From contig CP130488.1 of NCBI GenBank assembly GCA_030522375.1, positions 442 through 64,441 of the forward strand: a stretch of 64,000 nt of DNA. Reading direction: 5' to 3'. Position numbers and translations under genes: made by a program. Below, piece by piece: positions 14,517 to 40,279 of this stretch. The notes beneath the pieces were generated by a model, which was not told where the DNA came from, made no database searches, and saw nothing but the letters and a program-made list of their open reading frames with translations. The DNA is from Methanosuratincola petrocarbonis (lineage in GTDB: Archaea; Thermoproteota; Methanomethylicia; Methanomethylicales; Methanomethylicaceae). The first letter of the stretch is position 1, and each line of letters starts with the position of its first letter.

Positions 14517-14990
14517 ATGGGCGCCCAAGAATACAGCGTGCTTCTGGTTGACGACGATCTCGATCTGCTGGAAACGATGAAGGCAATCCTCGAAGGGAGG
14601 GGGTACCGAGTCGAAACGAGCCAGACTGGCGAGGACGCCCTCGAGAAGATAAAGGAGAAGTACTTCGATGTCATTGTACTGGACCTTGTGCTCCCCGGCA
14701 TATCCGGGATCGAGCTCCTGAGCCGTCTGGAGACGAACAGGATCCCACGGGTGAGGAAGATTATTCTGACTGGTCACTCCACACTCGAGAATGCAGTCCA
14801 AGCACTCAACCTGGGCGCGGACGCATACCTGATCAAGCCCGTCATGCCGGAGGATCTAGTGAAGGCGATCGCCGACCAGATCGATAAGCAGCAGCAGGAG
14901 ATCCTTCTGATCCAGGAGAAGATCAGGTATTTTGTTGAAAGGAATTCCGAAGAAAAGATAAGGCGCATTTCAGAGGAGAAATACCTTTAA
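14517..14990 (+). CDS. Single-domain response regulator (CheY-like receiver).
   Basis: The sequence LLVDDDLDLLETMKAILEGRGYRVETSQTGEDALEKIKEKYFDVIVLDLVLPGISGIELL carries the phospho-acceptor Asp and conserved receiver residues. Confidence 0.85.
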   Translation: MGAQEYSVLLVDDDLDLLETMKAILEGRGYRVETSQTGEDALEKIKEKYFDVIVLDLVLPGISGIELLSRLETNRIPRVRKIILTGHSTLENAVQALNLGADAYLIKPVMPEDLVKAIADQIDKQQQEILLIQEKIRYFVERNSEEKIRRISEEKYL

Positions 14991-15091
14991 ACCCCTCTGG
15001 AATTCCAGGTCTATTGGGTAAGTCCAGAAGCAAAATGTTATCTACTGGGCGCGAAAGATATTAAATATGCGCTGGGAGTTGGCGAGGTGCT

Positions 15092-17140: not shown

Positions 17141-17239
17141 TCCGCTTTTTACTGCCGGAACGGCGGATTCCTCTACTTAAAGAGGTTTTTTTGCGGAAAA
17201 AATGCTTTGCATAAAAAAAAATGATGCATGATTGTACAA

Positions 17240-17296
17240 AAGGAAAACTTATAAACAGTTTCAAAACTAATATATCCGGTTGTTGGGGATATCGGA
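17240..17296 (+). promoter_or_regulatory. AT-rich promoter-like region with TATA-like elements (cttataaa at 17248-17255; ctaatatat at 17267-17275) directly upstream of the ATG at 17297. The transcript is probably leaderless.
   Basis: There is a sharp GC drop. The TATA-like box sits ~22-28 nt upstream of the start codon. Confidence 0.3.
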
Positions 17297-17677
17297 TTGC
17301 ATATGATCAAAACAATCGGCTACTCCGACTTGCTCTCGCTTTGGACGAGGGGCACCAGGAACGGTGCGCTGCGGCGGCTGGGCAGCCTAAAGAAGGGGCT
17401 ATTCAGGTGCGCGCTCGAGTACTGCAAAAGGCTCGGGCCAATCACCAATCCGAAGCTCATCGGCATGATCGAAGGGATAGCCGACCGGATAAGGAACACG
17501 ATCGGGCAAAGGATATGGAGGAGGGGGCTCGACCTCGCCCACCAGTGGATCAACGGCAAGGTATCCGCGATCTTCCCGAAGGTGAAGCAGTGGGTATGCG
17601 AGGACCCGTTCCTCTTCTGGCTCGGTACCGACGCCCTAGTGAACCACAGGTTCTGGATAATGGTCCAGCGGAAGTGA
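17297..17677 (+). CDS. Hypothetical small basic protein.
   Basis: The 126-aa ORF sits directly behind the promoter-like element. Its stop overlaps the next start (GTGA). Confidence 0.35.
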   Translation: MHMIKTIGYSDLLSLWTRGTRNGALRRLGSLKKGLFRCALEYCKRLGPITNPKLIGMIEGIADRIRNTIGQRIWRRGLDLAHQWINGKVSAIFPKVKQWVCEDPFLFWLGTDALVNHRFWIMVQRK

Positions 17678-18150
17678 CCGTGGATCGGCTCTCTCCCCTG
17701 CTCGGGCTCGCAATCGCAGCCCTCTTGGCGCTGTCCCCTTTCCTTATGGGTGCACTCTCACCAGCCGTCTCCTGCTCGCCTTCCTTAAGTGAGGATCAGG
17801 AGTCGCTGAAGGCTCGGATAGTGGAGGTCTTCCTCGCGCTCCAGTCAGCGGAGTCCAACGGCGCCAACATATCCGCCCCGCTCCGGATGCTGAACCAGGC
17901 GCTCGCACTCATCCAGGATGGCGACCCCGCGTCACTCGAGCAGGCGGGTTCGATCATCTCGGAAGTGAACGCCTCGATACCGCAGCTCGCCGCTGAGGGG
18001 GAGCAGATGCGCCTCGCCTCGTCAGCCTGGCTCTATTCCTCCTTGGTGATGCTTGCAGTGGTCGGCGTCCTTTCCTACCTGTACCTCCCGAGGCTGATAT
18101 GGCGTTCCTGGGTGAAGGCGAAGCGCAAGTGGGAGGTCGCCGCCAGCTGA
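17674..18150 (+). CDS. Hypothetical secreted or membrane-anchored protein with a signal-like N-terminus, a C-terminal TM helix and a basic tail.
   Basis: A GTG start overlaps the preceding stop. The N-terminus reads VTVDRLSPLLGLAIAALLALSPFLMGAL. The C-terminus reads WLYSSLVMLAVVGVLSYLYLPRLIWRSWVKAKRK. The upstream part of the track ORF (17221-) is low-complexity and overlaps 17297-17677. Confidence 0.35.
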   Translation: MTVDRLSPLLGLAIAALLALSPFLMGALSPAVSCSPSLSEDQESLKARIVEVFLALQSAESNGANISAPLRMLNQALALIQDGDPASLEQAGSIISEVNASIPQLAAEGEQMRLASSAWLYSSLVMLAVVGVLSYLYLPRLIWRSWVKAKRKWEVAAS

Positions 18151-18204: not shown

Positions 18205-18687
18205 ATGATAGACGAGGAGATAAGGGCGGTCGTCCTGGCGGTAATTGTGCTGGGAGCTGCCTTGGCGGTCTCGCAGGCGATCACCGCGGGCAGGGTCGCG
18301 GAGCCCTTCTCAGCCCTCGGCGTTCTCGGGCCGAACATGAAGATAGGCGACTACCCGAAGGAGGTCCTCGCGGGCGAGCCTTTCAGGCTCTACCTGTATG
18401 TCGAGAACCACGAGGGGAAGGCGATGTACTACCGCGTGCTCGAGAAGGTGGGTGACAACTCCACTGTGCTGAACGAGACCGTGCCGGCTGACCTGCCTGT
18501 TCTCGCTTCGTACGACGTCGTCCTGGCTCACGGCGAGAACGCGACAATCCCAGTTAACGTGACCCTTGCGACCCCCGCGCAGGGCGCCAAGCTGATATTC
18601 GAGCTCTGGGCGGTCGGGACGGGCGGCTCCCCATATTACACGGGCAGGTGGAACCACCTTTGGATCAACGTGACGTCGCCGCCGTGA
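18205..18687 (+). CDS. Membrane-anchored extracellular protein resembling the soluble domain of archaeal DUF1616 proteins.
   Basis: An N-terminal TM segment (VVLAVIVLGAALAVS) is followed by YPKEVLAGEPFRLYLYVENHEGKAMYYRVLEK and several N-x-T sequons. The family assignment is from motif recollection only. Confidence 0.4.
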   Translation: MIDEEIRAVVLAVIVLGAALAVSQAITAGRVAEPFSALGVLGPNMKIGDYPKEVLAGEPFRLYLYVENHEGKAMYYRVLEKVGDNSTVLNETVPADLPVLASYDVVLAHGENATIPVNVTLATPAQGAKLIFELWAVGTGGSPYYTGRWNHLWINVTSPP

Positions 18688-18724: not shown

Positions 18725-20227
18725 ATGCAACAACTTTTTGTGGATCGGGAGGCGGAGCTCGGTTTCCTGGAGAGGAAGTACTCCGAGCAAGGGTCGCAGC
18801 TCATCGTGATATATGGGAGGAGGCGCGTAGGTAAGACTGCCCTCATAAAGAAGTTCCTCGAGGACAAACAGGGCGTCTACCTCATGTGCACCAAGGACAG
18901 CATGAGGGACAATGTGAACGAGCTGAAGAGGAGGTTGGCTGCGATGCTGGGGAAGGAATACCTCGCTTCGGTCGAGGCGAGATCCATCGGCGATGCCCTC
19001 AGCATCCTCGCGAAGGAGGCAGGCGGGCGGCGCCTCATCGTGGCGCTTGACGAGTTCCCTTACCTCATCGAGCTCGACCCTGGCGTCACCTCCAACCTCC
19101 AGCGGGCTTGGGACGAGGATCTCAGCAGGACTGGCATCCTCCTAATACTCTGCGGCTCGAGCGTCGGGATGATGGAGAGGGAGGTCCTGGGGGCACGGTC
19201 GCCCCTCTACGGGAGGCGCACCGGTGCCTGGGAGGTTACGCCGTTCCAGCCCGAGGACTTGCCGAAGATGTTCCCACGGGCAACAGCGGAGGATACAATC
19301 AAGATCTGGGCAGTCTTCGGGGGCACGCCCTTCTACCTCTCGCAGGTTGACCCAAGTGCGAGCTTGGAGGAGAGCATCCGCAGGAGGGTGCTCACCAAGG
19401 GCGAGGTCCTCTACGGGGAGCCCCTGATACTGCTCAGGGAGGAGTTCAGGGAGCCCGCGGTCTACCTCCAGGTGCTGAAGCACATCTCGCTCGGCTACGT
19501 TTCGCTGGGGGAGCTCAGCGGAGTCACTGGGCTCGACCGGGGGAACCTCTCCAAGTACCTCAGCGCCCTCGAGTCCACTAAGATCGTCAGGCACGTGCTC
19601 CCACTGGGGCAGCGCAAGCGCGGCCACTATATGATCGAAGATCCGTTCTTCTGCTTCTGGTTCAGGTTCGTCTACCCGAACATCAGCGACCTGGAGCTGG
19701 GGTTGGCTGACGAGGTGATGTGGAGGATAAGGTCGCGGCTGAGCCACCACTACGGCGAGATGTTCCACAGGGTGGTAATCCACCTGATCAGGAAGGGGGC
19801 AGTGCCGCTGCCATTCCGGCTCAGCGATGTGGGCGTTTGGTGGCACAAGGGCGTCGAGATAGACGTGGTTGGGAAGGGCGAGTCGGGGCAGCTCCTCTTC
19901 TGCGAATGCAAGTGGGAAGACGGGGTAGACCCGTGGAGGCTCGCAGGCTCGCTCCGCGAGAAGGCCGGCTACTTCTTGGGGGCGCGCAGGGTAGCCGTTT
20001 CCGCCTCAAATGCTGGGGCCGGGGAGAAGGACAAGCCCGGGGCAAGGGCAGGGGCTGGGGCTGGATCAGGGACAACGAAGGCTGACTCGCCCGAGGTGGT
20101 TTACTGCCTATTTGCCAAGAGCTTCAGGGATCGCCCGGCAAATGTCTCCACAGAGGGGCTGGGTGACGTGCTTCTTTTCGATCTGGTTGACCTTGGCAGG
20201 CTCGGGCTCGCCGCAGGGGCAGCTTAG
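18725..20227 (+). CDS. Archaeal ATPase family protein (PF01637-like AAA+ ATPase with a C-terminal DUF234-like domain).
   Basis: The N-terminus FVDREAELGFLERKY...LIVIYGRRRVGKTALIKKF carries a Walker A motif. A Walker B motif lies in LIVALDEFPYL. The 500-aa length matches the family. Confidence 0.75.
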   Translation: MQQLFVDREAELGFLERKYSEQGSQLIVIYGRRRVGKTALIKKFLEDKQGVYLMCTKDSMRDNVNELKRRLAAMLGKEYLASVEARSIGDALSILAKEAGGRRLIVALDEFPYLIELDPGVTSNLQRAWDEDLSRTGILLILCGSSVGMMEREVLGARSPLYGRRTGAWEVTPFQPEDLPKMFPRATAEDTIKIWAVFGGTPFYLSQVDPSASLEESIRRRVLTKGEVLYGEPLILLREEFREPAVYLQVLKHISLGYVSLGELSGVTGLDRGNLSKYLSALESTKIVRHVLPLGQRKRGHYMIEDPFFCFWFRFVYPNISDLELGLADEVMWRIRSRLSHHYGEMFHRVVIHLIRKGAVPLPFRLSDVGVWWHKGVEIDVVGKGESGQLLFCECKWEDGVDPWRLAGSLREKAGYFLGARRVAVSASNAGAGEKDKPGARAGAGAGSGTTKADSPEVVYCLFAKSFRDRPANVSTEGLGDVLLFDLVDLGRLGLAAGAA

Positions 20228-20417
20228 CTGGAGGGTCGCTTTGCCGCAGCCAAAGCCGAAAAATCCGAACCCTGCGCCGTCGAGGTGGCTGGAGAAGCTC
20301 AGCGGGAAGCCCAGCCCATCCGGGGGCGGGCGTGGGGAAGATGACGGCGAGCAGGAGGAGGGCGCCGACAGCGGGGATGCTTACGAGCCTGACGAGCTCG
20401 CCAAGAAGATCCTCAAC

Positions 20418-20999
20418 ATGATAAGGAACGGCGGGACGATGAATCTGGGGGAGGCAGTCCATGCGGCATCATCCGCCTTCGGCGCAAAGCCCGAGGAGGT
20501 CGCTAGGCGGATCTACGAGCTCAGCTCAGCCGGCTTGGTGGCGATCAGGGACCCCAACCCGCCGCGATCGCCACTTGGCTTCCTGAGGGATCCCGCCTAC
20601 TCCGCCTGGTACTGGGCGCTGATCGCGCTCGTCGCGGGCACGGTTGCCGTGGTCGCCGCTTCGCCGGGCGCCCCCCTGATCTACATCAGGTACGCACTCG
20701 GGTCGCTCTTCGTGCTCTACCTGCCGGGGGCCGCGCTCATCGAGCTCCTCTACCCGAGGAAGTCCGACCTCTCCCAGCTCGAGCGCCTTGCCCTCTCGCT
20801 GGGCCTCTCCCTGGCGCTGGTCCCGCTCATCGGGCTGGTCCTAAACTACACCCCGTGGGGGATAAGGCTCGAGCCGATCCTGGCTTCGGTCTCGCTGCTC
20901 ACCGTTGGTCTGGCCACCGGAGCACTCGTGAGGAAGCACTCTTATGTCAGGCTCCAAGCCGCCGCGCTCGGCTCATCCGCTGGGAGAGCCAATGCATAG
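20418..20999 (+). CDS. Membrane protein with an N-terminal winged-helix-like segment and a 4-TM region resembling the N-terminal membrane part of DUF1616 proteins. The start is uncertain; alternatives are TTG 20242 and ATG 20142.
   Basis: The track ORF starts at 20010 inside the preceding gene. The first in-frame ATG after that gene's stop gives MIRNGGTMNLGEAVHAA... The TM region reads LYLPGAALIELLYPRKSDLSQLERLALSLGLSLALVPLIGLVLNYTPWGIRL. Confidence 0.4.
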   Translation: MIRNGGTMNLGEAVHAASSAFGAKPEEVARRIYELSSAGLVAIRDPNPPRSPLGFLRDPAYSAWYWALIALVAGTVAVVAASPGAPLIYIRYALGSLFVLYLPGAALIELLYPRKSDLSQLERLALSLGLSLALVPLIGLVLNYTPWGIRLEPILASVSLLTVGLATGALVRKHSYVRLQAAALGSSAGRANA

Positions 21000-21762
21000 C
21001 ATGGCTGACCTGAACAGCGAGAGGGGCAACCCGTACGCAGCCGGGCTCGCCGCCTTCGGGGCGGGTCTCGCAGCCTTCTCCTGGTACCTCCTCCAGAGCA
21101 CGCCGATGACCGCGCTCGGGATAGGCGTTGCAGTCGTCGGTGCTTCGATCGCGATCACGCCGACCGCCCCGATCCCATCGAAAGCCGTGAGGAAGCTCCT
21201 CGAGGGATCCCTGGCGAACATTGAGGCCGTCCTCGAGGACACCGGGGCAGCGGGCAGGGGGTACTACGTCCCCGGGCCTGTAGGGGAGAGATCGGGAGAG
21301 GGCGGAGCCGACGCCAGCCCAGGGGCGGTCAGGGTCTTCGTGCCGATCGGCGGGGGCGGCGAAGCCGGATCCGGCAGCGGGGTTCCGCCTTCAAGGTGGG
21401 AGGCGAAGGGGCTCGTGTCCTCCCTGGACGGGAGGGATTACCTGGTCCTGTACCCGCCCGGGTCGTTCCTGGTCAGCAACGAGGGCATCTCGGGGGACCT
21501 CGAGTCGCTGCTGGGCGAGCTACTTGTCGAGGAGTCCGGCATCGTCGAGTCCGTGAAGGTTGTCGAGGACGGGCGATCCGTCGTCATAGAGCTCAAGCGC
21601 CCCAGGTCGGGGGCGGGCTACGGGAGGGTGAGGAGAGCGCTCGGGTCGCTCGAGGCTGGGACAGCCGCGGTCGTCGTTGCCGCCGCGAAGCGGAGGGTCG
21701 CAATGGTCGCCTCCGAGGAGGACCTAGGGGACAGGAAGAGGGTCGTGATCGACCTGATCTGA
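20992..21762 (+). CDS. Hypothetical membrane-anchored protein.
   Basis: The ATG overlaps the previous stop (ATGCATAG). Two N-terminal TM helices are followed by a Gly/Ser-rich linker and a soluble domain. Confidence 0.4.
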   Translation: MHSMADLNSERGNPYAAGLAAFGAGLAAFSWYLLQSTPMTALGIGVAVVGASIAITPTAPIPSKAVRKLLEGSLANIEAVLEDTGAAGRGYYVPGPVGERSGEGGADASPGAVRVFVPIGGGGEAGSGSGVPPSRWEAKGLVSSLDGRDYLVLYPPGSFLVSNEGISGDLESLLGELLVEESGIVESVKVVEDGRSVVIELKRPRSGAGYGRVRRALGSLEAGTAAVVVAAAKRRVAMVASEEDLGDRKRVVIDLI

Positions 21763-21850: not shown

Positions 21851-22096
21851 ATGGACAGGAACGCGCTCTTCAATGCCACCCTCGCGTCCCTGGTCGCAGC
21901 CTCGGTTTGGGCGCTCTCCTCCCTGGGCGAGGCGAGGCTCGACGTCTACGTCAGCGTCCTCGCGCTCGTCTACTTCGTCTGCCTTGCGGTATTCAGGCCC
22001 TCGAGGGGCTTCTTCGACTTCCCGGCGGCTGCGCTGTTCCTGGCATTCGCCGCCATCGTCGCGATGAGGGTCATCAGCATACTCTACGGGGCGTGA
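21851..22096 (+). CDS. Small integral membrane protein (3 TM).
   Basis: The start is MDRNALFNATLASLVAASVWAL. Three hydrophobic segments follow, and the protein is 81 aa. Confidence 0.35.
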   Translation: MDRNALFNATLASLVAASVWALSSLGEARLDVYVSVLALVYFVCLAVFRPSRGFFDFPAAALFLAFAAIVAMRVISILYGA

Positions 22097-22181
22097 TTTA
22101 TTTGCTTAATCGCTTGTTTTCTTGCTCGATCTGCCTTCCAGATCCGCTTCAAATTGAGGACCCGCCCGTTCGTCGAAGAGG

Positions 22182-24158
22182 TTGAGGCGTGATCTTGCTG
22201 TCCTGATCGGCACGATGGCGTTGGTCGCAACGATACTCGGCGGGGCGTCCCTCCTCCCGGCTGCGGAGCGCGCGATGAGGCACTCGGACGCGAAGGCTGC
22301 GCAGCCCGAGCTCCCGTCCCCTGCAGCCCTCCTCTCGGGGTACTCGACTGTCTTCTCGGCAGTCCTCATGGGCGGGTACTCGGACGCATCCGAGCTGATC
22401 CCGTACCTGAACTCGTCGTACGTGCCGGAGAACATTAGGTACATATTCGGGAGGTTCAACTCGCTCCTCGCCTCGGCGGTCTCGGATCTCAACCAGACCG
22501 AGATCCTAGTCGGGGAGGCGCGGGCGGCGATCGGCGTAGGCATGGTCGCTGAGGCGCGGGCGCTCGCCGGCAACGCCTCGGTGAGCCTGTGGAGGGCTAA
22601 CTCCACCGCCTCCCAGCTCAGGGACTCCTCGGCGACCTTGGCTTCGCAGCTGAAGGTGCCCCAGCTCCGCGCGGGGGTGTCGTCGGTCGAGGCGCGGATC
22701 GCGCACCTTTCGCAGGAGCTCTCTGAGGTCCGGTCCGAGATAGCCAGGGTCGAGGCTGGCGAGCTGGCGGGGACGGAGATCACGATCGCGCTCGACAGGG
22801 CTGAGGCGTGGGTCGGGTCCCCTGTCACAGCCTCTGGCTTCCTGTCGGCAGAGGGAAGATCCCCGATCGCCGGCGTCGTGGTGAAGGTGGCGGTCGAGGG
22901 TTCCCCCGCGGAGTACTCTGCGGTGACCGGCGCGGACGGCAGCTACTCCGTGACCTTCCCGGCGCCGTCAACGTACGCAGAGTCCGCCGCTGTATACGCT
23001 TACTTCCCAGCCTCGGGCGGATACGCAGGCTCAAGGTCCTCCGAAGCCAGCCTCAGGCTCCTATGGCTTCAGCCCGTGCTCGGAGCCACGCTGAACGCGA
23101 CGAGTGCGAAGCCTGGCGACTGGATCCTCGTCTCCGGGAGCACCGGGCTCGGAGATGCGCGCGGCGGGACGGTACGGGTCTCAGCCTTCGGGAGAAGCTT
23201 CACGGTGGATCCGTCGGGCGGCGCCTTCTCGCTCGCGGTCCAGGTCCCAGCCAGCGCGCCCAGCGGGCGGAACGCGATCACTGTTAGTGTAGTGCCGTCC
23301 GGGGTCGTCGGTCCCGGCTCCGCGACAGCCTACCTGGAAGTGTACAGGCTGCCGACCGCGGTGACCCTCAGCCTCCCTCCAGCCTCGATATCCGGGACCA
23401 ATTTGACCGTCAACGGGAGGGTGGTCTCGCCCTCCGACGGGGAGCCGGTGCCGAACGCGGCCGTCTCGATCAGGGTGCCAGGCGGCGTGTATGCAGGCGT
23501 CTCGGGCGAGGACGGTTCGTTCCGGGTTGATGTGCCGGTTGGGCTGGCTGTCCCGACAGGCTGGTTCGAGGTGATCGCGACGGCATACCCAGCAGCGGCA
23601 GCCTACCAGCAGTCCTCCGCTTCTTCAGGGCTCTACGCCGTGAACCCGTCCATTGCGGCGATCCCGGTTGCTGCGCTCGCGATCGCGTACTCGGCTGCAG
23701 GCAGGCTCAGGGGTGCCAAGGGCGGGACCAACAAGCCCCAAGGATTGGCGGGGCTCGGCGTTGGGGCTGGATCGGATGGCAAGGCGAGGGCTGGGGCAAT
23801 GAGCGCGGTCGTCTCAGCCTACCACAGGGCAGCGGCTGCAATCGGGCGTCTCCTGGGATCTGCGATCGGGAGGGGCGAGACCCTCCGGGAGTTCCTCCGG
23901 CGGGTGCGCGTGAGGGCTGGCAAGGAGACCGCGGATCCCTTCGGGGAGCTGACTAGAATGGCTGAGGAGGAGCTCTACGCCGGGAGGGTGCACGAGGCAG
24001 CCAGGGCGGAGTCTCTCCTCCATAGGGTGATCTCATCCCTCTCCGCGCTCGGGGGGATCATCACGGGCGCCGCAGATCATGCGGGCGGGGAGGCTGATGG
24101 CTCCGCTGAGGGCGATGCGGGCGGAAAGGGAGCCGGGAATAGGGATGGCGGGGCATGA
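22182..24158 (+). CDS. Large membrane protein with an N-terminal TM, an extracytoplasmic coiled-coil and carboxypeptidase-regulatory/Ig-like domains, a second TM, and a C-terminal cytoplasmic DUF4129-like domain.
   Basis: The extracytoplasmic part contains VNGRVVSPSDGEPVPNAAVSIRVPGGVYAGVSGEDGSFRVDVP, a CarbopepD_reg-like motif. The second TM is AIPVAALAIAYSAAG. The C-terminal region ETLREFLRRV...FGELTRMAEEELYAGR matches the DUF4129 signature. This is the first gene of a 4-gene overlapping operon. Confidence 0.6.
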   Translation: MRRDLAVLIGTMALVATILGGASLLPAAERAMRHSDAKAAQPELPSPAALLSGYSTVFSAVLMGGYSDASELIPYLNSSYVPENIRYIFGRFNSLLASAVSDLNQTEILVGEARAAIGVGMVAEARALAGNASVSLWRANSTASQLRDSSATLASQLKVPQLRAGVSSVEARIAHLSQELSEVRSEIARVEAGELAGTEITIALDRAEAWVGSPVTASGFLSAEGRSPIAGVVVKVAVEGSPAEYSAVTGADGSYSVTFPAPSTYAESAAVYAYFPASGGYAGSRSSEASLRLLWLQPVLGATLNATSAKPGDWILVSGSTGLGDARGGTVRVSAFGRSFTVDPSGGAFSLAVQVPASAPSGRNAITVSVVPSGVVGPGSATAYLEVYRLPTAVTLSLPPASISGTNLTVNGRVVSPSDGEPVPNAAVSIRVPGGVYAGVSGEDGSFRVDVPVGLAVPTGWFEVIATAYPAAAAYQQSSASSGLYAVNPSIAAIPVAALAIAYSAAGRLRGAKGGTNKPQGLAGLGVGAGSDGKARAGAMSAVVSAYHRAAAAIGRLLGSAIGRGETLREFLRRVRVRAGKETADPFGELTRMAEEELYAGRVHEAARAESLLHRVISSLSALGGIITGAADHAGGEADGSAEGDAGGKGAGNRDGGA

Positions 24159-25273
24159 ACGCCAGGGGGGCAGCCGCGCTCGGGGCGTTCTTGGCGCTGA
24201 CATCAGCCGTGGGGATCATGTTGGCTGTGCCGTCCGTTGACGACTTCTCGCTGGATAACCCGTACTGGAACGGGATGTCCTCGGCTGCTGCGGGGCTCGG
24301 GATCTCGGCTCTCCCCCCGGGGGTCGAGCCCGATCCAGCTGGGGACGTGCTGCTGATCGCGGGGCCGGACATGCCGTTCTCCCAGGGAAGGGTCTCCGAG
24401 GTCGCGTCTTTCCTCGAGTCTGGCGGCGTGGTGGTGCTGATGGACGACTTCGGCGAGGGTAACTCGCTCCTGGAGGGGCTCGGCGCCCCGGTCAGGATAA
24501 ATGGGTCGCCCCTGCTCGACCCGCTGTTCATGGAGAAGTCGAGGCATTACCCGAGGGTCTCCGCGCCTGGAGGCTCGGACGCGGACGGCGGCGTGGAGGT
24601 AACGATGGACTATGCCTCCGCCCTCGAGATCGTGCCGGGGGCTGGGCAACACGGGGTTAGGGTGCTGCTCGAGTCGTCAGCCTTCAGCTACCTGGACGCA
24701 GACGGGGACGGCGAGCACGACGCGGGCGAGCCGCAAGGCCCGCTCCCTGTGGCTGCAGAGGTGCCCTACGGCAAGGGGAGGCTCGTCGTGGTCTCGGACT
24801 CGAGCATCCTGATCAACTCGGTCTGTGGCATCTCGGGAGGGAACGCCGAGTTCGTCAGGGCAATCGCCGGAGCCGGAAAGAGGGCTATCCTGATCGACTA
24901 CGGGAACAACGAGGCTTCGCCCTACGGCTCGCTGAGGTCCGGGCTGATCTCGGTTGTGGGCGCGGTCGGCGAGTACCCTGAGCTGAGGTACCTCCTGGCG
25001 GTCCTGGGGGCTTGGGCGATATTCGCGGCTGACCCCCTAAGGCTGCTCTCCAGGCGAGCCGCCGGGGGCTCGAGGGCTTTTGCGGGGGAGGGCGATGAGC
25101 TCATGAGGGTCGCCGAGGCGCACCCGGGGTGGGACTTATCCCTGCTCAGGAGGACGTGGGAGGAAAGGGCGAGATGCGGATCCGGCGCTTCGAGCCGGGC
25201 TGCGGGATCGGGCAGCAAGCATCCGGAGGCAGCCTCCAAATTCCAAGAGGGTGACGGAGGGCAAGCGAAATAA
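24155..25273 (+). CDS. DUF4350-like protein with an N-terminal TM and a C-terminal TM, flanking an extracytoplasmic domain.
   Basis: The start overlaps the previous stop. The segment GGVVVLMDDFGEGNSLLEGLGAPVRINGSPLLD...GKGRLVVVSDSSILIN resembles the DUF4350 core. The protein is in a conserved neighbourhood with MoxR/DUF58. Confidence 0.55.
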   Translation: MNARGAAALGAFLALTSAVGIMLAVPSVDDFSLDNPYWNGMSSAAAGLGISALPPGVEPDPAGDVLLIAGPDMPFSQGRVSEVASFLESGGVVVLMDDFGEGNSLLEGLGAPVRINGSPLLDPLFMEKSRHYPRVSAPGGSDADGGVEVTMDYASALEIVPGAGQHGVRVLLESSAFSYLDADGDGEHDAGEPQGPLPVAAEVPYGKGRLVVVSDSSILINSVCGISGGNAEFVRAIAGAGKRAILIDYGNNEASPYGSLRSGLISVVGAVGEYPELRYLLAVLGAWAIFAADPLRLLSRRAAGGSRAFAGEGDELMRVAEAHPGWDLSLLRRTWEERARCGSGASSRAAGSGSKHPEAASKFQEGDGGQAK

Positions 25274-25308
25274 GGGCTGCCTGGTGAGGATACGGGAGAT
25301 CTTATCTT

Positions 25309-26292
25309 ATGGTGATTGAGATGGAACCAACCAACTTGCTGAATACAAGAGACCCTTCCATGATCAAGGTTCCGCCGGTCTCGGACCTGGTTAAGGAAGT
25401 CAGGGCATACGTCGTCGGGATGGACGAGCAGCTGTGGCTCTCCTGCGTCGCGCTCCTCTCGGGCGGTCACCTGCTGATCGAGGGACCTCCCGGGGCTGGC
25501 AAGACGCTACTCGCGAAGAACTTCACGAGCGCGATCGGCGGCGAGTTCCGCAGGATACAGATGACCCCGGACCTCCTCCCCTCGGACATAGTCGGTGTCA
25601 ACACCTACAACATCGCGACGGGTGGCTGGAGCGTCAGGAAGGGGCCGATATTCGCGAACGTCGTGCTCCTGGACGAGATGAACAGGGCTACGCCGCGCAC
25701 GCAGTCCGCGCTACTCGAGGCGATGCAGGAGGGGCGGGCGACGATAGAGGGCGTCTCCTACGACCTGCCGAAGCCGTCTTTCTTCATCGCCACCCAGATG
25801 GGGGAGGGGTCCGAGGGGACCTACCCGCTGACCGACGTGCAGGTCGACAGGTTCGCCTACAGCACCCTTGTGGATAACCCTAACAGTGACGAAGAGATGG
25901 AAATACTCTCGAGGGTCGACCTGAACGAGGCCTCCCTGGCGAGGCAGGTCACGGACCCGAAGGAGATCGCGTCGCTGCTCGAGGCTGTGAGGAGGGTCCA
26001 CGTCTCCGACAGGGTCAAGGGTTACATCGTCTCGCTGGTGAACGCGGTCAGGGAGATGAGGGAGCTCAGGTGGTCGCCCGGGGTCAGGGCATCCGTAGCG
26101 CTCTACAAGGGCAGCAGGGCTGTGGCTTTCCTCGAGGGGCGTGACTACGTCATCCCTGACGACGTGAAGGCGGTAGCCCCGAGCGTGCTGAGGCACAGGA
26201 TGGTGTTGAGGATGGAGGCTCTCGCAGAGGGGATCACGCCGGAGTCGCTGATCGAGAGGGCGCTCTCGGAGACGCCCGTCCCGAAGGAATGA
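25309..26292 (+). CDS. MoxR-family AAA+ ATPase.
   Basis: A Walker A motif HLLIEGPPGAGKTLLAKNF is present. A Walker B and sensor region VVLLDEMNRATPRTQSALLEAMQEG follows. The 327-aa length is typical of MoxR (AAA_3). Confidence 0.85.
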   Translation: MVIEMEPTNLLNTRDPSMIKVPPVSDLVKEVRAYVVGMDEQLWLSCVALLSGGHLLIEGPPGAGKTLLAKNFTSAIGGEFRRIQMTPDLLPSDIVGVNTYNIATGGWSVRKGPIFANVVLLDEMNRATPRTQSALLEAMQEGRATIEGVSYDLPKPSFFIATQMGEGSEGTYPLTDVQVDRFAYSTLVDNPNSDEEMEILSRVDLNEASLARQVTDPKEIASLLEAVRRVHVSDRVKGYIVSLVNAVREMRELRWSPGVRASVALYKGSRAVAFLEGRDYVIPDDVKAVAPSVLRHRMVLRMEALAEGITPESLIERALSETPVPKE

Positions 26293-27968
26293 GCGGCGCA
26301 CCCGCCCGTCCAGGCTTTGGTCGTGCGGTCGTCGGCGATGCCAGCGTCAGCGCTGAAAGTGTATGGGGAGAACAAGATAGGGTAAGGATTGAGCGGGAAG
26401 ATGATGGGAGTATCCGCCTGAAGATGGTCCGCCTACGCCTGGCTGGGAAGAAGCCCTTCGCGACGAGGAGGGGAACCTCCGCAGCCTGCTCCGGCGCCTT
26501 CCTGGCTGCGCTCGCCGGCATCTCGGGGGACCCTATCCTGGCTGCGGCTGGGGCTTCTGTTCTCGCAGGGTCAGCCGCCGACCTCGCGATCATGCTCTCC
26601 AGGCTTGCGAAGAAGGAAAAAGGAGCGCGTGCAGGGGTCGGAACCGTAGGGTCGGGGGGCAAAGCAGGATTATCGCTGACCTCCATCGCAGGGGAGTCGG
26701 TCGATTTCTTGGTCGATATCGAGGCCCCGGGATTGGGCGAGGTGGAGTCGTTCGCAGCCGATCCGCCGTTCGAGGTGCTCGGGCACTCCAGGGTTGGGGG
26801 CGGGTACAGGGTGGAGCTGCGGGCAAAGCCGGAGCTCTACGGCGACTACGCCCTGGGCGGGATTGAGGCTGTGACCAGGTCGAGGGCGGGATTCTTTGGG
26901 GCGAGGGCAGCCCTTGTGCCCGCCAGGGAGGTTGGAGAGGTTGGCGGTGGGCTGGCTGAGGGGACGGCGCAGCCCGAGAGGGGCGTAGACGTGGGCACAA
27001 TCGAGGCGCGAAGCGAGGGCGGAGCCGGAGCCGGAAAAACGAGCAGAAAAGAAATCGAGACGGCGGTTGATGAGGGGGAGCAGGGTTCAAACGGAAGCTC
27101 AAGCGTGAACGCACCGTGGATCGCGAGGCTGAGGGTCTACCCGAGGTTCTACCCGCTCATGATCGAGGCGCTGTCGCTGCTGGGCGAAGGTCCGTTGGAG
27201 GGAGATGTGGCTGCGGCGGGGAAGAGAAGGATCAGCAGGGGGGCGGAGTACGCTTGGTCGAGGGAGTACGAGCCCTGGGACTCGCCCCGGTTCATAGACT
27301 GGAAGGCCACCGCGAGGAGGGGGAGGCTCTCGGTGAAGGAGTTCTTCGAGGACCAAGGCGGGAGGGGGGCGGTCGTCTTCTTCGACGGTAGGGCGCCCGG
27401 GAGGATCTCGGCGGACGAGATGGCGAGGGACCTGCTCTCGGCGCTCCTGGGGCTGGCTGGCGCCGGGCAGAGGGTCACGCTCTTCCTGAGCCGCGGGGGG
27501 GCGTGCAGGAGGGTTGAGGGCGGTGCGGAGGAGGCTCTGAGGGCAGCCCTCGCGGAGGTCTTCGAGGTGGTGGTGGGCGCGGACCCGGAGGTATTCGCGC
27601 TTATCCCGCCCGCGGTGAGGTCGTCGCTGCTCGGGATGATAAGAAGGGGGAGAGGTGGCGCCGGCAGCGGACTCCCGGAGGACGAGGCTGGCAGGGAAGT
27701 AGTAGCAATGTCGAGGTCGGGCAGGGTCGGCGACTTTGTCTACATCGGGTGCCCGCTCTACGGGGCTTCAGGGGCGCTGGGGATGATCTCCGAGGTCGCC
27801 TCGCACGGCGCCCGGGTCAGGGTACTCCTGCCAACGAGGCCGTGGCTCGACGCCCCGACCCTGGAGAAGGCTTACGAGGTGCGGGTGAGCTGGTGGAAAA
27901 TTTCCAATTTTTTAGCACAATCTAATGTCGCAGAAACGGCGAATCCTATTTTTTCTCTGTTGACTTAA
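26289..27968 (+). CDS. DUF58-domain protein (vWA-like MoxR partner) with an extended N-terminal membrane-associated region.
   Basis: The start overlaps the MoxR stop. The DUF58 signature is AEYAWSREYEPWDSPRFIDWKATARRGRLSVKEFFED. Confidence 0.7.
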   Translation: MSGAPARPGFGRAVVGDASVSAESVWGEQDRVRIEREDDGSIRLKMVRLRLAGKKPFATRRGTSAACSGAFLAALAGISGDPILAAAGASVLAGSAADLAIMLSRLAKKEKGARAGVGTVGSGGKAGLSLTSIAGESVDFLVDIEAPGLGEVESFAADPPFEVLGHSRVGGGYRVELRAKPELYGDYALGGIEAVTRSRAGFFGARAALVPAREVGEVGGGLAEGTAQPERGVDVGTIEARSEGGAGAGKTSRKEIETAVDEGEQGSNGSSSVNAPWIARLRVYPRFYPLMIEALSLLGEGPLEGDVAAAGKRRISRGAEYAWSREYEPWDSPRFIDWKATARRGRLSVKEFFEDQGGRGAVVFFDGRAPGRISADEMARDLLSALLGLAGAGQRVTLFLSRGGACRRVEGGAEEALRAALAEVFEVVVGADPEVFALIPPAVRSSLLGMIRRGRGGAGSGLPEDEAGREVVAMSRSGRVGDFVYIGCPLYGASGALGMISEVASHGARVRVLLPTRPWLDAPTLEKAYEVRVSWWKISNFLAQSNVAETANPIFSLLT

Positions 27969-27981
27969 AGGAGTGAGAAAT

Positions 27982-28953
27982 ATGGACGTTGGCGTAATTG
28001 GCGTAGGTGTGATGGGCAAAAACCATCTAAGAATATACTCTGAAATGAGAGGAGTTGGCGAAGTCTATGCTTACGATGTTGACAAGAATTCCTTGATGAA
28101 GGCTTGCAATGTAACTAATGCAACTCCATGCGACAGCCTGAAATCATTATTGAGGAAAGTTGATGCAGTAAGCATATGCGTCCCTACAAAATATCATTTC
28201 GAAACCGCGAAGAAAGTCTTTGAGTCCAACATCAATTTTCTGCTCGAAAAGCCAGTCACTATGACATTAAAAGAAGGTCTTGAGTTAGTGAAAATGGCAG
28301 AAAGGCTTAGCCATGTTGTTGTAGGGGTAGGGCACATAGAACGCTTTAATCCCATAGTGTCTGAAATAAAGAGCCTTATCGATCAGCCAAAATTAATTGA
28401 GATAAAGCGCCATAATCCGGCATCATCAAGAATAACCGATTCGGACATAACGTCCGATTTGATGATCCATGATATCGACATCATTTGGAATTACTTATTC
28501 GAGAAAAAACAAGAAAAACAACTCCATTCCGTTGGAAACCAGGACGTCAGGAAAGTTGTCGCAGAGTTTGACGACTGCATAGTATCTCTCTCCGCTAGCC
28601 GAATCTCTTGCAAAAAAATCAGAAACATAGTAGTCGAGTGCGACAAATTTACTATTGAGGGCGACTTTATGACTCAGGAGGTCTACCTTTATAAGAAGCC
28701 TGGCAAGTACCAGCAGGATACTACAAAATACACGCAGGAAAACATCATTGAAAAAGTGCTAATCAACAAAGTCGAACCTCTGAAAGAAGAGCTTAAGGTA
28801 TTTTTAGATTCCGTAAGAAATAGCAAAGCGTTCCCTGTGACATTGGAACAAGGCGTATCAAACATTTATTTGGCGAAGAAAATAGAGGGCGGTTCATCGT
28901 TCGCAAATGAAGTTATTCCAAGCCAAAGCCTCATAACAAAGTGCTTTGACTAA
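27982..28953 (+). CDS. Gfo/Idh/MocA-family NAD-dependent oxidoreductase, a WbpB-like UDP-sugar 3-dehydrogenase candidate.
   Basis: The N-terminus MDVGVIGVGVMGKNHLRIYSEM is a Rossmann motif, followed by the EKP motif (FLLEKPV). SD AGGAGTGA lies 8-14 nt upstream of the ATG. This is the first gene of the low-GC block, which starts abruptly at ~27970. Confidence 0.75.
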   Translation: MDVGVIGVGVMGKNHLRIYSEMRGVGEVYAYDVDKNSLMKACNVTNATPCDSLKSLLRKVDAVSICVPTKYHFETAKKVFESNINFLLEKPVTMTLKEGLELVKMAERLSHVVVGVGHIERFNPIVSEIKSLIDQPKLIEIKRHNPASSRITDSDITSDLMIHDIDIIWNYLFEKKQEKQLHSVGNQDVRKVVAEFDDCIVSLSASRISCKKIRNIVVECDKFTIEGDFMTQEVYLYKKPGKYQQDTTKYTQENIIEKVLINKVEPLKEELKVFLDSVRNSKAFPVTLEQGVSNIYLAKKIEGGSSFANEVIPSQSLITKCFD

Positions 28954-28987
28954 TAATTCTATGAGTATACAGAATGGGGAAATTCTA

Positions 28988-30169
28988 ATGGACATTTCAG
29001 TAATAGGCTTAGGAAAAGCAGGGCTGCCTCTTGCTGCAATAATTGCAGACAGTGGCTTTAATGTAACTGGAATAGACCTTGACAGCAAAAAGTGCGAGCT
29101 GATAAACTCTGGTGAAAATCCAATACCCGAAGAACCGGGTCTAGAATCTCTTATAAAAAAATATGGCGGCAAGTCGCTTCGTGCATTTACAGATTACTGT
29201 TCGGCGTCAAATTGTAAGGCATACATAATAATCGTTCCACTTTTCATCAATGAGTTTCGGGAGCCTGACTTCAGGACTCTGAAGGGTGCCGTGAAGAGCG
29301 TAGGAAAGATGCTGAAGAAAGGAGACTTGGTGGTTGTGGAAACCACAGTGCCTCCTCTGACCACAGAGGAACTTGTACTCCGCTGGCTGGAGGAGGAGAG
29401 TGGCATGCATTTAGGCGAATTCTATCTTGCTCACTCGCCAGAAAGAATTATGAGCGGCAATTGCATATCCCGCCTCCGCGAATTTCCGAAGGTTATTGGT
29501 GGCGTTGACAAGAAAAGCGGAATTGTGGCTTTCGAAATGTATAGGAAGTTCATACCAAATCTACATTTAGTCTCCTCGGCTAGGGTGGCTGAGTTCGTAA
29601 AAAATATCGAAGGTTGCTATAGAGATGTAAACATCGCGCTTGCAAATGAACTCTACAAAATAGCCGAAGAGCTGGGCATTGAATTCTACGAATCGCGGGA
29701 GCATGCTAACCACGAGTATTGCCACTTGCTTTTGCCGTCAACGGGCGTAGGGGGGCACTGCATCCCAGTTTATCCTTGGTTTCTGATAAAAGAGATGGAG
29801 CGAAAAGGAAAGGACGAGTTTGCCGACTTGCTCCGGAAATCAAGGGAAATAAACGATAAAATGATTGAATATTGGGCAAATAAAATCGTCATTGCGTGCT
29901 TAAAGATCGATAAACCGTTGAACAAAATCACGATATGCATAAAGGGAATTACTTACCGAAAAGGGGTCAAGGAGCTTTTCCACAGCCGGAACCTGGCACT
30001 CGCAAAACTTTTGGCAGACAAGGGTTTCAGGATCTCCATCTATGACGAAATGTTCACCAGAGAAGAAATTGAAAAGCTTGGCCTTGCATGGGGCGACCCA
30101 GATTTAGCCGACTTGACATTCGATCCATTTGATTTGAAGATTAAACTGAATGCGCAAAAAAATGTATAA
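28988..30169 (+). CDS. UDP-sugar 6-dehydrogenase family protein, a WbpA/WecC-like UDP-N-acetylhexosamine dehydrogenase candidate.
   Basis: The N-terminus MDISVIGLGKAGLPLAAIIADSGFNVTGIDLD is NAD-binding. The catalytic Cys region is STGVGGHCIPVYPWF. An alternative ATG lies at 28961. Confidence 0.75.
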   Translation: MDISVIGLGKAGLPLAAIIADSGFNVTGIDLDSKKCELINSGENPIPEEPGLESLIKKYGGKSLRAFTDYCSASNCKAYIIIVPLFINEFREPDFRTLKGAVKSVGKMLKKGDLVVVETTVPPLTTEELVLRWLEEESGMHLGEFYLAHSPERIMSGNCISRLREFPKVIGGVDKKSGIVAFEMYRKFIPNLHLVSSARVAEFVKNIEGCYRDVNIALANELYKIAEELGIEFYESREHANHEYCHLLLPSTGVGGHCIPVYPWFLIKEMERKGKDEFADLLRKSREINDKMIEYWANKIVIACLKIDKPLNKITICIKGITYRKGVKELFHSRNLALAKLLADKGFRISIYDEMFTREEIEKLGLAWGDPDLADLTFDPFDLKIKLNAQKNV

Positions 30170-30914
30170 AGGTTTCAGAATCGGGGTTTCGGTACCGGCT
30201 TATAACGAAGAAAATTTGATCTTGAAAACTCTCCAAGGGATCCCCAGTTTTGTAGACAAAATCTATGTCGTAGATGATGCCTCAACGGACAGAACCTCCG
30301 AAAAAGTAAAAAACTACGCCGATAGCCGAGTCGTTTTATTGAAACACAGCAGGAATAAGGGGGTAGGCGGTGCCATCGTCACTGCATGGAAGATGGGGTT
30401 GAACGAGGTTGACATTCTTGCAGTGATGGCAGGTGATAACCAGATGGATCCTGGCGATCTTCCTTCTCTCTTGGACCCAATCGTGGAAGGGAAAGTGGAC
30501 TTCACAAAGGGTAACCGGTTTATGAAAAAATATGATTTGAAAATGAGTGCTTGGAGGCGGTTTGGAACAGCGGTTTTGACGGTTTTGAATAAAATAGCGA
30601 CAGGCTATTGGAATATCGGTGACCCCCAAAATGGGTATGTTGCCATTTCTTCCTCCGCACTAAAGAAGATTGATTTAGACGAACTTTACAAGGGATATGC
30701 TTTTGAGAATGACCTGTTGTTGAAGGCTAAGATAGCAGGACTGAGGGTTGTAAGCGTTCCCGTTACGATAAGATACAAAATAGGGGAACAATCGAAAATT
30801 AAATATTCCAAATTCATAGCAAAAATATCTTGGTATATGCTGAGGTCATTCTTATGGCGCATCTATGTCCAGCATTTCAGGAATCTTAAAACTCGGGAAT
30901 ACGATATCATTTAA
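30150..30914 (+). CDS. Family 2 glycosyltransferase (Dpm1-like, polyprenyl-phosphate sugar transferase type).
   Basis: The N-terminus IGVSVPAYNEENLILKTL is followed by VVDDASTDRT (a DxD-type motif) and DAD-like residues. The protein is 254 aa. Confidence 0.75.
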   Translation: MRKKMYKGFRIGVSVPAYNEENLILKTLQGIPSFVDKIYVVDDASTDRTSEKVKNYADSRVVLLKHSRNKGVGGAIVTAWKMGLNEVDILAVMAGDNQMDPGDLPSLLDPIVEGKVDFTKGNRFMKKYDLKMSAWRRFGTAVLTVLNKIATGYWNIGDPQNGYVAISSSALKKIDLDELYKGYAFENDLLLKAKIAGLRVVSVPVTIRYKIGEQSKIKYSKFIAKISWYMLRSFLWRIYVQHFRNLKTREYDII

Positions 30915-30939
30915 AAAATAAAAGCATAATGATCGACCA

Positions 30940-32043
30940 ATGAAACGAATAGCAATCTTTGTGAACACCCCAGCACAGCTGCATTTCTATCGAAACATAG
31001 CCAAGAGGCTTGAGCAAAAAGGAAACCAAGTCAATATGCTGTTCAGGGATTACGGAGAGACTCTGCGATTAGCTCAAGAATTTGGTTTTAATCCACTAAT
31101 CTTCTCAAAACAGCGACCCACTTCGCTACAAAAAATGATTTTTTTCCCAGTCGACATTATGCGTTCGGTTAGGATTTTTCGCGGGCAAAATCCAGATGTC
31201 GTAACAGGATTCGGCATCGACAGCGTATATGCTTCCGCATTTGCTGGATCTAAAAGCATTGTCTTCAGTGATTCCGAGCCTAGATCGCATCGTCTACTGC
31301 ATTTTCAATACGATCTTTTCAAACCCTTAACGGATGTGATTATTACGCCTTCTTCATTCTTGGATGACCTGGGGAGCAAACATATCCGAGTGAACAGCTA
31401 TAAGGAACTCGCCTACTTGCACCCAAATTGCTTTCAACCAAGCAACGACATATTCGATCTCTTGGGCATTTCAAGAAACGAAGACTTCGCTATCCTTAGA
31501 TTCAATGCTTTCGATGCTGTGCACGATCTACAAATCTCAGGCTTCAATTCAGAGCAAAAAGTGAAGCTCGTTGAAACTCTTGACCGTCACGCCCATGTCT
31601 TCGTCTCTGCCGAAGGGAGCGTTCCAAAGCGAATCGAAAAGAACGTCCTCAAAATCCCCAAGAGAAGAATACATGACCTCCTATACTACGCCAAGCTTTT
31701 CGTTACCGATACGCAAACTATGGCTACAGAGGCAGCCATTCTTGGCACGCCCACAATCCGAAGCAACAATTTTGTAGACGAAAAAAGGGAAATGGGTAAC
31801 TTCCTTGAGCTAGAAAAAAAATACGGGCTTCTGTTTAGTATTTGCGATAGAAATAGAGCGATTTCCTTGGCAGAGGAATTGATAAAGTATGATGGTCTGA
31901 AAAAGGAATGGACAAGAAGGCGCGAGGTTTTATTGAAGGATAAAATTGACATTTCGTCGTTCATGACTTGGTTTATCGAAAACTATCCCGAAAGCTGCAA
32001 GGAAATCAAATCCGATTCGAAAATCCAGTTCAAATTCAGGTAA
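30940..32043 (+). CDS. DUF354-family protein, a predicted glycosyltransferase/epimerase-fold enzyme.
   Basis: The N-terminus MKRIAIFVNTPAQLHFYRNIAKRLEQKGNQVNMLFRDYGETLRLAQEFGF matches the DUF354 N-terminal pattern. The 367-aa length also fits. Confidence 0.55.
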   Translation: MKRIAIFVNTPAQLHFYRNIAKRLEQKGNQVNMLFRDYGETLRLAQEFGFNPLIFSKQRPTSLQKMIFFPVDIMRSVRIFRGQNPDVVTGFGIDSVYASAFAGSKSIVFSDSEPRSHRLLHFQYDLFKPLTDVIITPSSFLDDLGSKHIRVNSYKELAYLHPNCFQPSNDIFDLLGISRNEDFAILRFNAFDAVHDLQISGFNSEQKVKLVETLDRHAHVFVSAEGSVPKRIEKNVLKIPKRRIHDLLYYAKLFVTDTQTMATEAAILGTPTIRSNNFVDEKREMGNFLELEKKYGLLFSICDRNRAISLAEELIKYDGLKKEWTRRREVLLKDKIDISSFMTWFIENYPESCKEIKSDSKIQFKFR

Positions 32044-32044
32044 A

Positions 32045-33124: not shown

Positions 33125-33305
33125 CTAAGCGTAATTTTATGCGCGCGCAATTGTATGCGATTTGCCAAGATGAAAAGGTTAAAGCTATTGAGTCTCAAAA
33201 TACTTCAGTACTCTATACTCTTTGTGTATAGATTGGTTTTCAAATAAAAATGTTTGATATAAAACTAAACTATGATTATAGTAATAAATAGTAAATAATT
33301 GGAAT

Positions 33306-36290: not shown

Positions 36291-36305
36291 CAGGGTGGAA
36301 TTCGT

Positions 36306-37406: not shown

Positions 37407-37428
37407 TAAAAATTTTTAATTAATAAAT

Positions 37429-39163: not shown

Positions 39164-39164
39164 T

Positions 39165-40277: not shown

Positions 40278-40279
40278 AT

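Follow-up and report, generated by a model that had tools for sequence, protein, structure and literature searches.

The gene neighbourhood of the archaeal DUF4350 family (arCOG01314, GldG-like) was described computationally by Makarova, Galperin and Koonin (2015, Biochimie, section 3.2 and Table 2; PMC5898192). Its parts are a MoxR AAA+ ATPase (COG0714), a protein combining immunoglobulin-like (Ig) and von Willebrand factor A (vWA) domains, Ig-like "S-layer" proteins, DUF1616/COG4743 (arCOG02884), and small membrane proteins, and it was proposed to be a novel secretion system or a membrane-remodelling complex (PMC5898192). The locus analysed here lies in a 64,000-nucleotide stretch of Methanosuratincola petrocarbonis (contig CP130488.1, positions 442 to 64,441 of the forward strand), called the window below and numbered from its first letter. 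Four genes, named g1 to g4, encode an Ig-like envelope protein with a DUF4129 tail, a DUF4350 protein, a MoxR ATPase, and a DUF58 protein. The window copy very probably belongs to the arCOG01314 neighbourhood module, as DUF4350, MoxR, Ig+vWA, DUF1616, Ig-like envelope and 2-3 transmembrane (TM) proteins are all found, together with the phyletic breadth in archaea. A first-pass annotation of the DNA had treated the four genes as a version of a MoxR-DUF58 system with added envelope-exposed domains. The architecture is not new, as the module had been predicted in 2015, and g1 to g4 constitute the 3' half of a conserved set of seven to nine genes.

The locus departs from the published description in a few respects. 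A cytoplasmic DUF4129 tail on the Ig-like protein is not mentioned in the paper of Makarova et al., and the Ig+vWA protein, there considered probably secreted, is predicted here to be cytoplasmic and membrane-tethered. Furthermore, the Methanosuratincola genomes postdate that paper, and the lineage of the window has a split DUF1616 and an inserted ATPase_2/DUF234 gene. Literature searches by arCOG number, DUF name, and locus tag turned up no functional study of the archaeal module, in line with the earlier statement that its function lacks an experimental definition. The family arCOG02884 was still listed as dark matter in a 2019 review. The sole experimental datum found for module proteins is the N-glycosylation of the Haloferax DUF1616 protein HVO_2173, which is an AglB-dependent N-glycoprotein (PMC8241124).

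Related bacterial clusters

Several bacterial gene clusters share parts of this architecture. In Pseudomonas aeruginosa, we take PA2875 to be MoxR-like, PA2874 to be a DUF58 protein, and TgpA (PA2873) to end in a DUF4129 domain. The three genes are co-transcribed, the last encodes a membrane protein with a large periplasmic domain, and tgpA is essential (PMC3507681). Outside the membrane, TgpA has a transglutaminase domain where g1 has Ig-like ones, and the operon contains no DUF4350 gene. The mycobacterial cluster Rv3689-Rv3695 (M. chelonae BB28_RS01875-01900) is co-regulated and carries the same DUF4350-MoxR-DUF58 string (Rv3691-Rv3693) with flanking membrane proteins (PMC8191103). Compared by description only, this cluster differs in being bacterial and in having SpoIIM-like and RDD proteins in place of DUF1616, DUF7982, and DUF8044. 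The PFNA cluster of Bifidobacterium (pkb2-fn3-MoxR-duf58-tgm) likewise places an FN3 (Ig-like) surface protein beside MoxR and DUF58 (PMC8430577), but it includes a Ser/Thr kinase and a transglutaminase, lacks DUF4350 and DUF1616, and is confined to one genus.

NorQ-NorD, RavA-ViaA, and related pairs also join an AAA+ MoxR ring to a VWA adaptor. NorQD is the one MoxR-VWA pair with a structural mechanism, in which the AAA+ pore takes up a finger of the VWA domain and the adaptor linker is remodelled through ATP hydrolysis (PMC13036017). Adaptors of the NorD/ViaA type are soluble, keep the metal-ion-dependent adhesion site (MIDAS), and act in metalloenzyme maturation, whereas g4 is predicted to be membrane-anchored, has no DxSxS motif, and is linked to envelope proteins. 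GldG and the GIFT domain protein IFT52 share with g2 the succession of TM segment, large outside domain, and TM segment, as well as a weak similarity in the DUF4350 domain. However, g2 scores under the family thresholds and has no adjacent GldA/GldF-type ABC genes; with no ABC transporter gene in the module, the locus does not fall into the GldG type.

Conservation and gene order

The module occupies the window from approximately 17.6 kb to 27968, is colinear with its relatives, and is encoded on the forward strand throughout. Its order is 2-TM protein, split DUF1616, DUF7982-like, DUF8044-like, Ig/DUF4129, DUF4350, MoxR, and DUF58. Conservation was assessed in 64 loci (numbered with the prefix L), collected by scanning genome contigs with a DUF4350 alignment; the loci were gathered via DUF4350 patterns, and the co-occurrence figures describe that subfamily only. 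The collection includes Methanosuratincola, Bathyarchaeia, Nitrososphaeria, Sulfolobales, Desulfurococcaceae, and Methanodesulfokora, as well as many Thermoplasmatota, Halobellus, Methanocellaceae, Methanoperedens, Methanospirillum, Geoglobus, and the bacterial Dehalococcoidia.

Hidden Markov models (HMMs) iterated from the window proteins detected a single copy of each family per locus in a nearly constant order. In 48 of the 55 assessable loci, the gene immediately before DUF4350 is of the g1 type; MoxR follows DUF4350 directly in 36 of 57, and DUF58 occurs in 34 of 48. The full set of seven families was found in 16 of the 28 loci that extend for 5 kb or more on each side. Precomputed Pfam annotation, which is independent of these models, gives the same order in L001 and L003 and in the additional metagenomic loci L069, L070, and L071, and relatives of g1 with 46-54% identity sit in the order DUF1616, DUF1616, DUF7982, 80-aa (amino acid) protein, g1, DUF4350, MoxR, DUF58. 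The same block is found again in Thermoproteota, Thermoplasmatota, and Halobacteriota, and Dehalococcoidia have a version that lacks DUF1616; in Thermoproteota the block is preceded by the extra 2-TM protein and the split DUF1616. Seven to nine co-oriented and often translationally coupled genes, five or six of them encoding membrane proteins, are inherited together. The comparison across several phyla bears out the operon conservation that the first-pass annotation had named as a check, and it supports the suggested link to the neighbouring DUF1616 genes, whose synteny is kept in most of the related loci. DUF1616 behaves like a co-inherited subunit rather than a demonstrated substrate.

Within the window, g1 extends from 22182 to 24158 (658 aa, TTG start), g2 from 24155 to 25273 (372 aa), g3 from 25309 to 26292 (327 aa), and g4 from 26289 to 27968 (559 aa). 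Overlapping stop and start codons had been claimed for the whole four-gene set. The ATGA overlaps exist at 24155-24158 (g1/g2) and 26289-26292 (g3/g4), but g2 and g3 are separated by a 35-nt (nucleotide) spacer, so that two of the three junctions within g1 to g4 are coupled. Overlaps of 4 nt of this type also occur in orthologous loci, e.g. L001, L005, and L009. The G+C (GC) content of g1 to g4 is 65-67% and falls to 42% directly 3' of the g4 stop codon. Upstream of g1, an 85-nt spacer (22097-22181) opens with TTTATTT (22098-22104), a possible candidate for an archaeal TATA-like element, and g1 to g4 might thus have a promoter of their own. A promoter and terminator scan used bacterial models, which are not informative for an archaeon, and its counts in the window were close to the shuffle expectation.

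The Ig-like envelope protein g1

The four domain assignments of the first-pass annotation, for which it had suggested a profile search as a check, are all recovered by Pfam above gathering score. For g1, CarboxypepD_reg scores 40.9 bits (gathering score 32.3), while DUF4129 is marginal with 25.2 bits against 24.8 (residues 546-614). The DUF4129 call nevertheless holds at the family level, because 35 of 42 g1 orthologues match it; many orthologues match CarboxypepD_reg or Big_3_5. Neither g1 nor any of the 42 orthologues has a Pfam match to Transglut_core, and g1 is thus not a TgpA-family enzyme.

Hydropathy and an AlphaFold2 model (built from 11 sequences; mean predicted local distance difference test score, pLDDT, 73) give the layout of the protein. 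An N-terminal TM helix (residues 2-22) is followed by long helices that form a bundle on the outside (47-192), a row of three beta-sandwich domains (198-487), and a second TM segment (489-507). A disordered basic linker then leads to a cytoplasmic helical DUF4129 domain (542-628). Thus modelled, g1 is predicted to be a bitopic-like envelope protein with a tandem Ig/macroglobulin-like array outside. By fold comparison, this array resembles both macroglobulin domains and bacterial adhesin repeats, and these matches indicate a generic tandem Ig-like fold. The envelope-exposed topology proposed earlier for g1 and g2 is supported by the same two approaches.

The ectodomain of g1 contains six N-X-S/T sequons, four of which are invariant among 11 homologues, and the tail contains none. 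The DUF4129 tail is kept across phyla: in 42 sequences, Glu595 is invariant and T567 and E570 are near-invariant. The first 11 residues of g1, which has a TTG start, are conserved in homologues. A search against 1.84 billion representatives returned 300 matches at E<=1e-30, and most of the 150 best matches listed are 600-660 aa long and colinear over the full length. Judged by these sequences, the g1 architecture represents a populated family.

The DUF4350 protein g2 and the MoxR ATPase g3

The DUF4350 match of g2 reaches 55.9 bits (gathering score 30.4). Two TM segments (residues 7-25 and 280-298) flank the DUF4350 ectodomain, which is GldG/GIFT-like. ABC_transp_aux scores 27.7 bits, which is under its gathering score of 34.7, and against solved structures the DUF4350 profile gave only a weak match, the IFT52 GIFT domain 5FMR (E=0.029). 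After the second TM segment, the tail of g2 (25100-25273) carries the motif (H/N)P-x-W-(D/R)-x3-L, which is present in DUF4350 proteins of Thermoproteota and Thermoplasmatota.

The assignment of g3 is clear, with 163.4 bits for AAA_3 (gathering score 27) and 71.6 bits for AAA_lid_2 (22.7). Walker A (GPPGAGKT) and Walker B (LLDE, in LLDEMNR) are intact, the closest solved relative is the MoxR protein 2R44 (E=1.3e-62), and close relatives are named "MoxR family ATPase" by NCBI. The protein has neither a TM segment nor a signal peptide, and its gene is followed directly by that of g4 via the ATGA overlap. Public records for Candidatus Methanosuratincola petrocarbonis list the window proteins as "DUF4350 domain-containing protein" and "MoxR family ATPase"; an NCBIfam search added nothing specific.

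The DUF58 protein g4

As with the tail of g1, the DUF58 match of g4 is marginal: 28.0 bits against a gathering score of 23.4, covering only the 33-residue stretch 324-356. It holds at the family level, because DUF58 is matched in 35 of 36 g4 orthologues. In the DUF58 signature R-x-Y-x-x-G-D...IDW, W338 is invariant and R325 and D331 are nearly invariant.

Hydropathy and the AlphaFold2 model (pLDDT 78, predicted template modelling score 0.72) place a TM hairpin at residues 60-115. In the model it is followed by a beta-sandwich (128-211), a disordered insert or linker of approximately 50 aa (219-271), and an alpha/beta domain of vWA-like type (279-544). The best matches of the modelled alpha/beta domain are VWA domains, albeit weak ones, with NorD as the best structural match; the DUF58 profile found no useful match among solved structures. 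Moreover, the disordered linker between the two folded domains of the model is comparable to the remodelled linker of NorD. The MIDAS motif DxSxS is absent from g4, with FFD366GRAPG at the site, and among the g4 orthologues only those of Thermoplasmata have D-C-S-P-S. Both flanks of the TM hairpin are rich in Arg and Lys, which by the positive-inside rule suggests a cytoplasmic location, shared with MoxR, for the two ends of g4.

Upstream genes of the module

The first gene of the module (17221..18150, forward strand, open reading frame (ORF) of 309 aa) encodes a small membrane protein with two TM segments (2-TM; residues 152-178 and 271-293) and a helical loop of approximately 100 aa on the outside. 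It has no Pfam match. In 14 loci, homologues lie directly upstream of the gene for the DUF1616 C-terminal part, and their alignment is limited to residues ~160-309. Over its first ~150 codons (17221-17680), the ORF is basic, of low complexity, and conserved in no homologue. Since only the C-terminal ~150 aa are conserved, the true start is probably near 17650-17700.

DUF1616 is encoded by two genes. The C-terminal part (18205..18687; Pfam 59.4 bits, profile positions 153-307) has one TM segment (8-26) and an outside Ig-like domain with five sequons in 134 outside residues, and homologues were found in 38 loci. The N-terminal part (20010..20999; 98 bits) consists of a cytoplasmic winged-helix-like segment and four TM segments; it matches profile positions 2-119 at residues 206-311 and is syntenic in 43 loci. 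Its ORF overlaps the preceding gene by 218 nt, so that the true start is probably downstream of 20227. The split is permuted, the upstream gene carrying profile positions 153-307 and the downstream gene 2-119. It recurs in other Thermoproteota loci, while euryarchaeal loci have a single gene of ~330-350 aa.

Between the two DUF1616 genes, a 500-aa ATPase_2 and DUF234 gene (18725-20227) interrupts the module. It occupies the same position in M. verstraetei (L005) and L007, is absent from L001, L003, and L069, and matches the PADLOC candidate defence family PDC-S27 (E=9e-45). This gene is probably an insertion and not a component of the module.

The DUF7982-like protein (20992..21762), assigned through orthologue annotation and an iterated HMM, has an N-terminal TM hairpin and a soluble domain of ~200 aa that is probably cytoplasmic. 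The ATG of its gene at 20992 overlaps the DUF1616 stop codon (ATGCATAG). The iterated HMM finds the family in 47 loci, and orthologues in L003, L069, and L070 are annotated as PF25939; in the local Pfam copy, neither the protein nor any of 39 orthologues has a match. The last gene before g1 encodes an 81-aa, DUF8044-like membrane protein with three hydrophobic segments (3-TM; 21851..22096). Its family occurs in 53 loci, and the L070 orthologue is annotated as PF26161 DUF8044. In an alignment of 38 sequences, F66 is invariant and the motif F-x2-IV-x2-(R/K)-V is conserved.

Across the module, sequon density is 1.3-3.7 per 100 aa in the predicted outside parts versus ~0.2 in the predicted cytoplasmic parts, where about two sequons occur in ~1100 residues. 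This distribution supports the predicted topology.

Genomic surroundings

A low-GC island (27970-42000) begins at most 14 nt after the DUF58 stop codon, with 34-47% GC versus 60-67% in the flanks. Its genes include a GFO_IDH_MocA oxidoreductase, a UDP-sugar dehydrogenase, a GT2 glycosyltransferase, a DUF354 protein, and a UDP-GlcNAc 2-epimerase. Four island genes (35586-39163) have no homologue in any related locus. Owing to the foreign GC content and the genes without counterparts, the island looks like a later, strain-specific insertion and, as far as its sequence tells, like a horizontally acquired glycosylation cluster. Further downstream, 51742-56877 encodes a predicted surface protein of 1711 aa that combines a NosD/right-handed beta-helix region with numerous Ig-like repeats of the Big_13, Big_7, and Big_3 families; no conserved link between this protein and the module was seen. 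The first-pass suggestion that the module may mature surface proteins encoded nearby is not supported as it stands: outside a few lineages, neither the island nor the large surface protein is a conserved neighbour of the module.

On the other side, a response regulator and a PAS histidine kinase (14517-17140) lie directly upstream of the module, a pair kept only in L001 and L005. A hairpin followed by T7 is located at 17170-17192, after the histidine kinase gene and upstream of the ORF at 17221.

Proposed mechanism and alternative explanations

Overall, the best explanation, held with somewhat more than even confidence, is a conserved archaeal envelope module for MoxR-driven assembly or remodelling. 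Beyond the composition, predicted topology, and co-inheritance described above, the steps of its mechanism are inferred. Three of the proteins are predicted to expose large domains outside, in which N-glycosylation sequons are clustered: g1 its helical bundle and its three Ig-like domains, g2 its GldG-like domain, and DUF1616 its Ig-like part. On the inside, MoxR, judged by its sequence, would form a cytoplasmic AAA+ ring that DUF58 might tether to the membrane through its TM hairpin. The beta-sandwich and vWA-like domains of g4 would lie in the cytoplasm and serve as the MoxR adaptor, possibly in the manner of NorD/NorQ, with a finger in the pore and a remodelled linker. The main handle gripped by this pair would be the DUF4129 tail of g1; the HPxW(D/R) tail of DUF4350 may serve as a further handle, as may the soluble domain of the DUF7982-like protein. 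With ATP hydrolysis as the drive, force or binding exerted there would make the glycosylated scaffold outside assemble or switch its conformation. That MoxR and DUF58 act on cytoplasmic handles is a tentative proposal, with rather less than an even chance of being correct. The most likely output is the assembly, anchoring, or remodelling of a cell-surface structure associated with S-layer glycoproteins, and transport through a channel is less likely.

Such transport is central to the reading preferred by Makarova et al., a protein secretion system whose membrane subunits form a MoxR-powered export conduit for large surface proteins. In its favour, the components are mostly membrane or extracellular proteins, DUF4350 has a relative in GldG, which belongs to the ABC transporter associated with gliding and the type IX secretion system (PMC5898192), g2 has the ABC_transp_aux match, and the 1711-aa surface protein and glycosylation genes share the window. 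However, the subunits have only one to four TM segments each, and the ABC_transp_aux score is below threshold, with no ABC transporter genes adjacent. Assembly or remodelling is favoured over a translocase because the module has no evident polytopic channel subunit, a conserved candidate cargo gene is missing beside it, and the MoxR ATPases characterised to date are remodelling or metal-insertion chaperones rather than translocases; secretion is therefore considered unlikely. The resemblance of the tandem Ig/macroglobulin-like domains to adhesin and macroglobulin repeats would also suit a surface receptor or adhesion device with integrin-like signalling, in which the Ig and GldG-like ectodomains bind a ligand or glycan and MoxR/DUF58 set or read their state. 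The two-component genes immediately upstream and the combination of FN3 surface protein, MoxR, DUF58, and kinase in the PFNA cluster of Bifidobacterium point the same way. Yet the two-component genes are confined to the closest relatives, the module lacks an output domain, and its wide conservation among archaeal phyla, which appears to be vertical, points to a housekeeping role in the envelope, which leaves this explanation a slim chance.

A similarly small probability is given to a glycan-linked function, in which the GIFT/GldG-like DUF4350 would handle glycans or glycoproteins together with the adjacent glycosylation island. Genes for sugar nucleotides and glycosyltransferases flank the module in the window, L001, L003, L069, and L070, the ectodomains are rich in sequons, and the weak profile match to the IFT52 GIFT domain is compatible with such a role. 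Glycosyltransferase-type neighbours occur, however, in only ~15 of 68 loci, a figure with no background control, and the island is foreign in GC content, with several genes lacking a counterpart in related loci. A conserved functional link to the island was rejected on account of its restriction to a minority of loci and its base composition. Alternatively, MoxR and DUF58 could be a generic chaperone pair for an unrelated client, e.g. a cytoplasmic protein or metalloenzyme, their adjacency being incidental. Known MoxR-vWA pairs do serve very different clients, and the pair is missing beside the membrane genes in some Thermoplasmata loci. Against this, MoxR directly follows DUF4350 in most assessed loci across phyla, often with overlapping codons, DUF58 itself is membrane-anchored according to hydropathy and AlphaFold2, and the DUF4129/MoxR/DUF58 linkage recurs in bacteria; an incidental adjacency is thus very improbable. 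There is hardly any probability that the module acts against phages or in biological conflict as a MoxR-vWA ternary system. The bpMoxR profile matches g3 with 31 bits (gathering score 27), and the inserted ATPase_2/DUF234 gene is a PADLOC candidate, but the AAA_3 score of 163 bits is far higher, no beta-propeller or effector partner is present, and the gene order is stable across phyla, unlike in defence islands. PADLOC gave two weak P-loop-level matches for MoxR (mad8 21.5 bits, DolB 20.2) and nothing for the other components. The defence reading was rejected because of the missing partner genes and the P-loop-level nature of the PADLOC matches.

Several points weigh against MoxR-driven assembly or remodelling as well. 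Besides the DUF4350-based sampling of the loci, several Thermoplasmata loci keep the membrane genes with no MoxR/DUF58 within 10 kb (e.g. L027, L037, L042, L044). The ATPase pair may be dispensable, act in trans, or only help in assembly, and these loci suggest that the membrane proteins are the core, with MoxR/DUF58 as an accessory in assembly or regulation. The DUF4350 orthologues of Dehalococcoidia and Methanomicrobia lack the HPxW motif, and the missing MIDAS serines of g4 make classical vWA-type ligand binding doubtful. The cytoplasmic placement of g4 is deduced only from the positive-inside rule and the hairpin model, and Makarova et al. called the Ig+vWA protein "likely secreted" (PMC5898192).

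Significance

The locus in the window adds little that is new in kind, as the module was predicted a decade ago and is here found in a recently cultured methanogen lineage. The analysis sharpens the earlier picture in that the true extent is seven to nine genes, the motor-adaptor pair is probably cytoplasmic, and DUF4129 is the likely handle. A bolder version, which is decidedly unlikely, would make the module an ATP-driven trans-envelope machine of a kind uncharacterised in any organism, in which MoxR via DUF58 pulls or twists the DUF4129 tails and thereby moves or polymerises the glycosylated Ig-like ectodomains. If true, this would be a new surface-assembly or secretion apparatus, ancient in archaea and common to Dehalococcoidia and, in reduced form, Actinobacteria.

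Among the uncharacterised gene sets of the archaeal envelope, the module ranks with the more widely conserved ones. Knowing its role would close a gap in the understanding of how the archaeal surface is built or maintained. Furthermore, it would supply the first defined client for the MoxR-DUF58 and DUF4129 families, which take in an essential Pseudomonas operon and a mycobacterial cluster.

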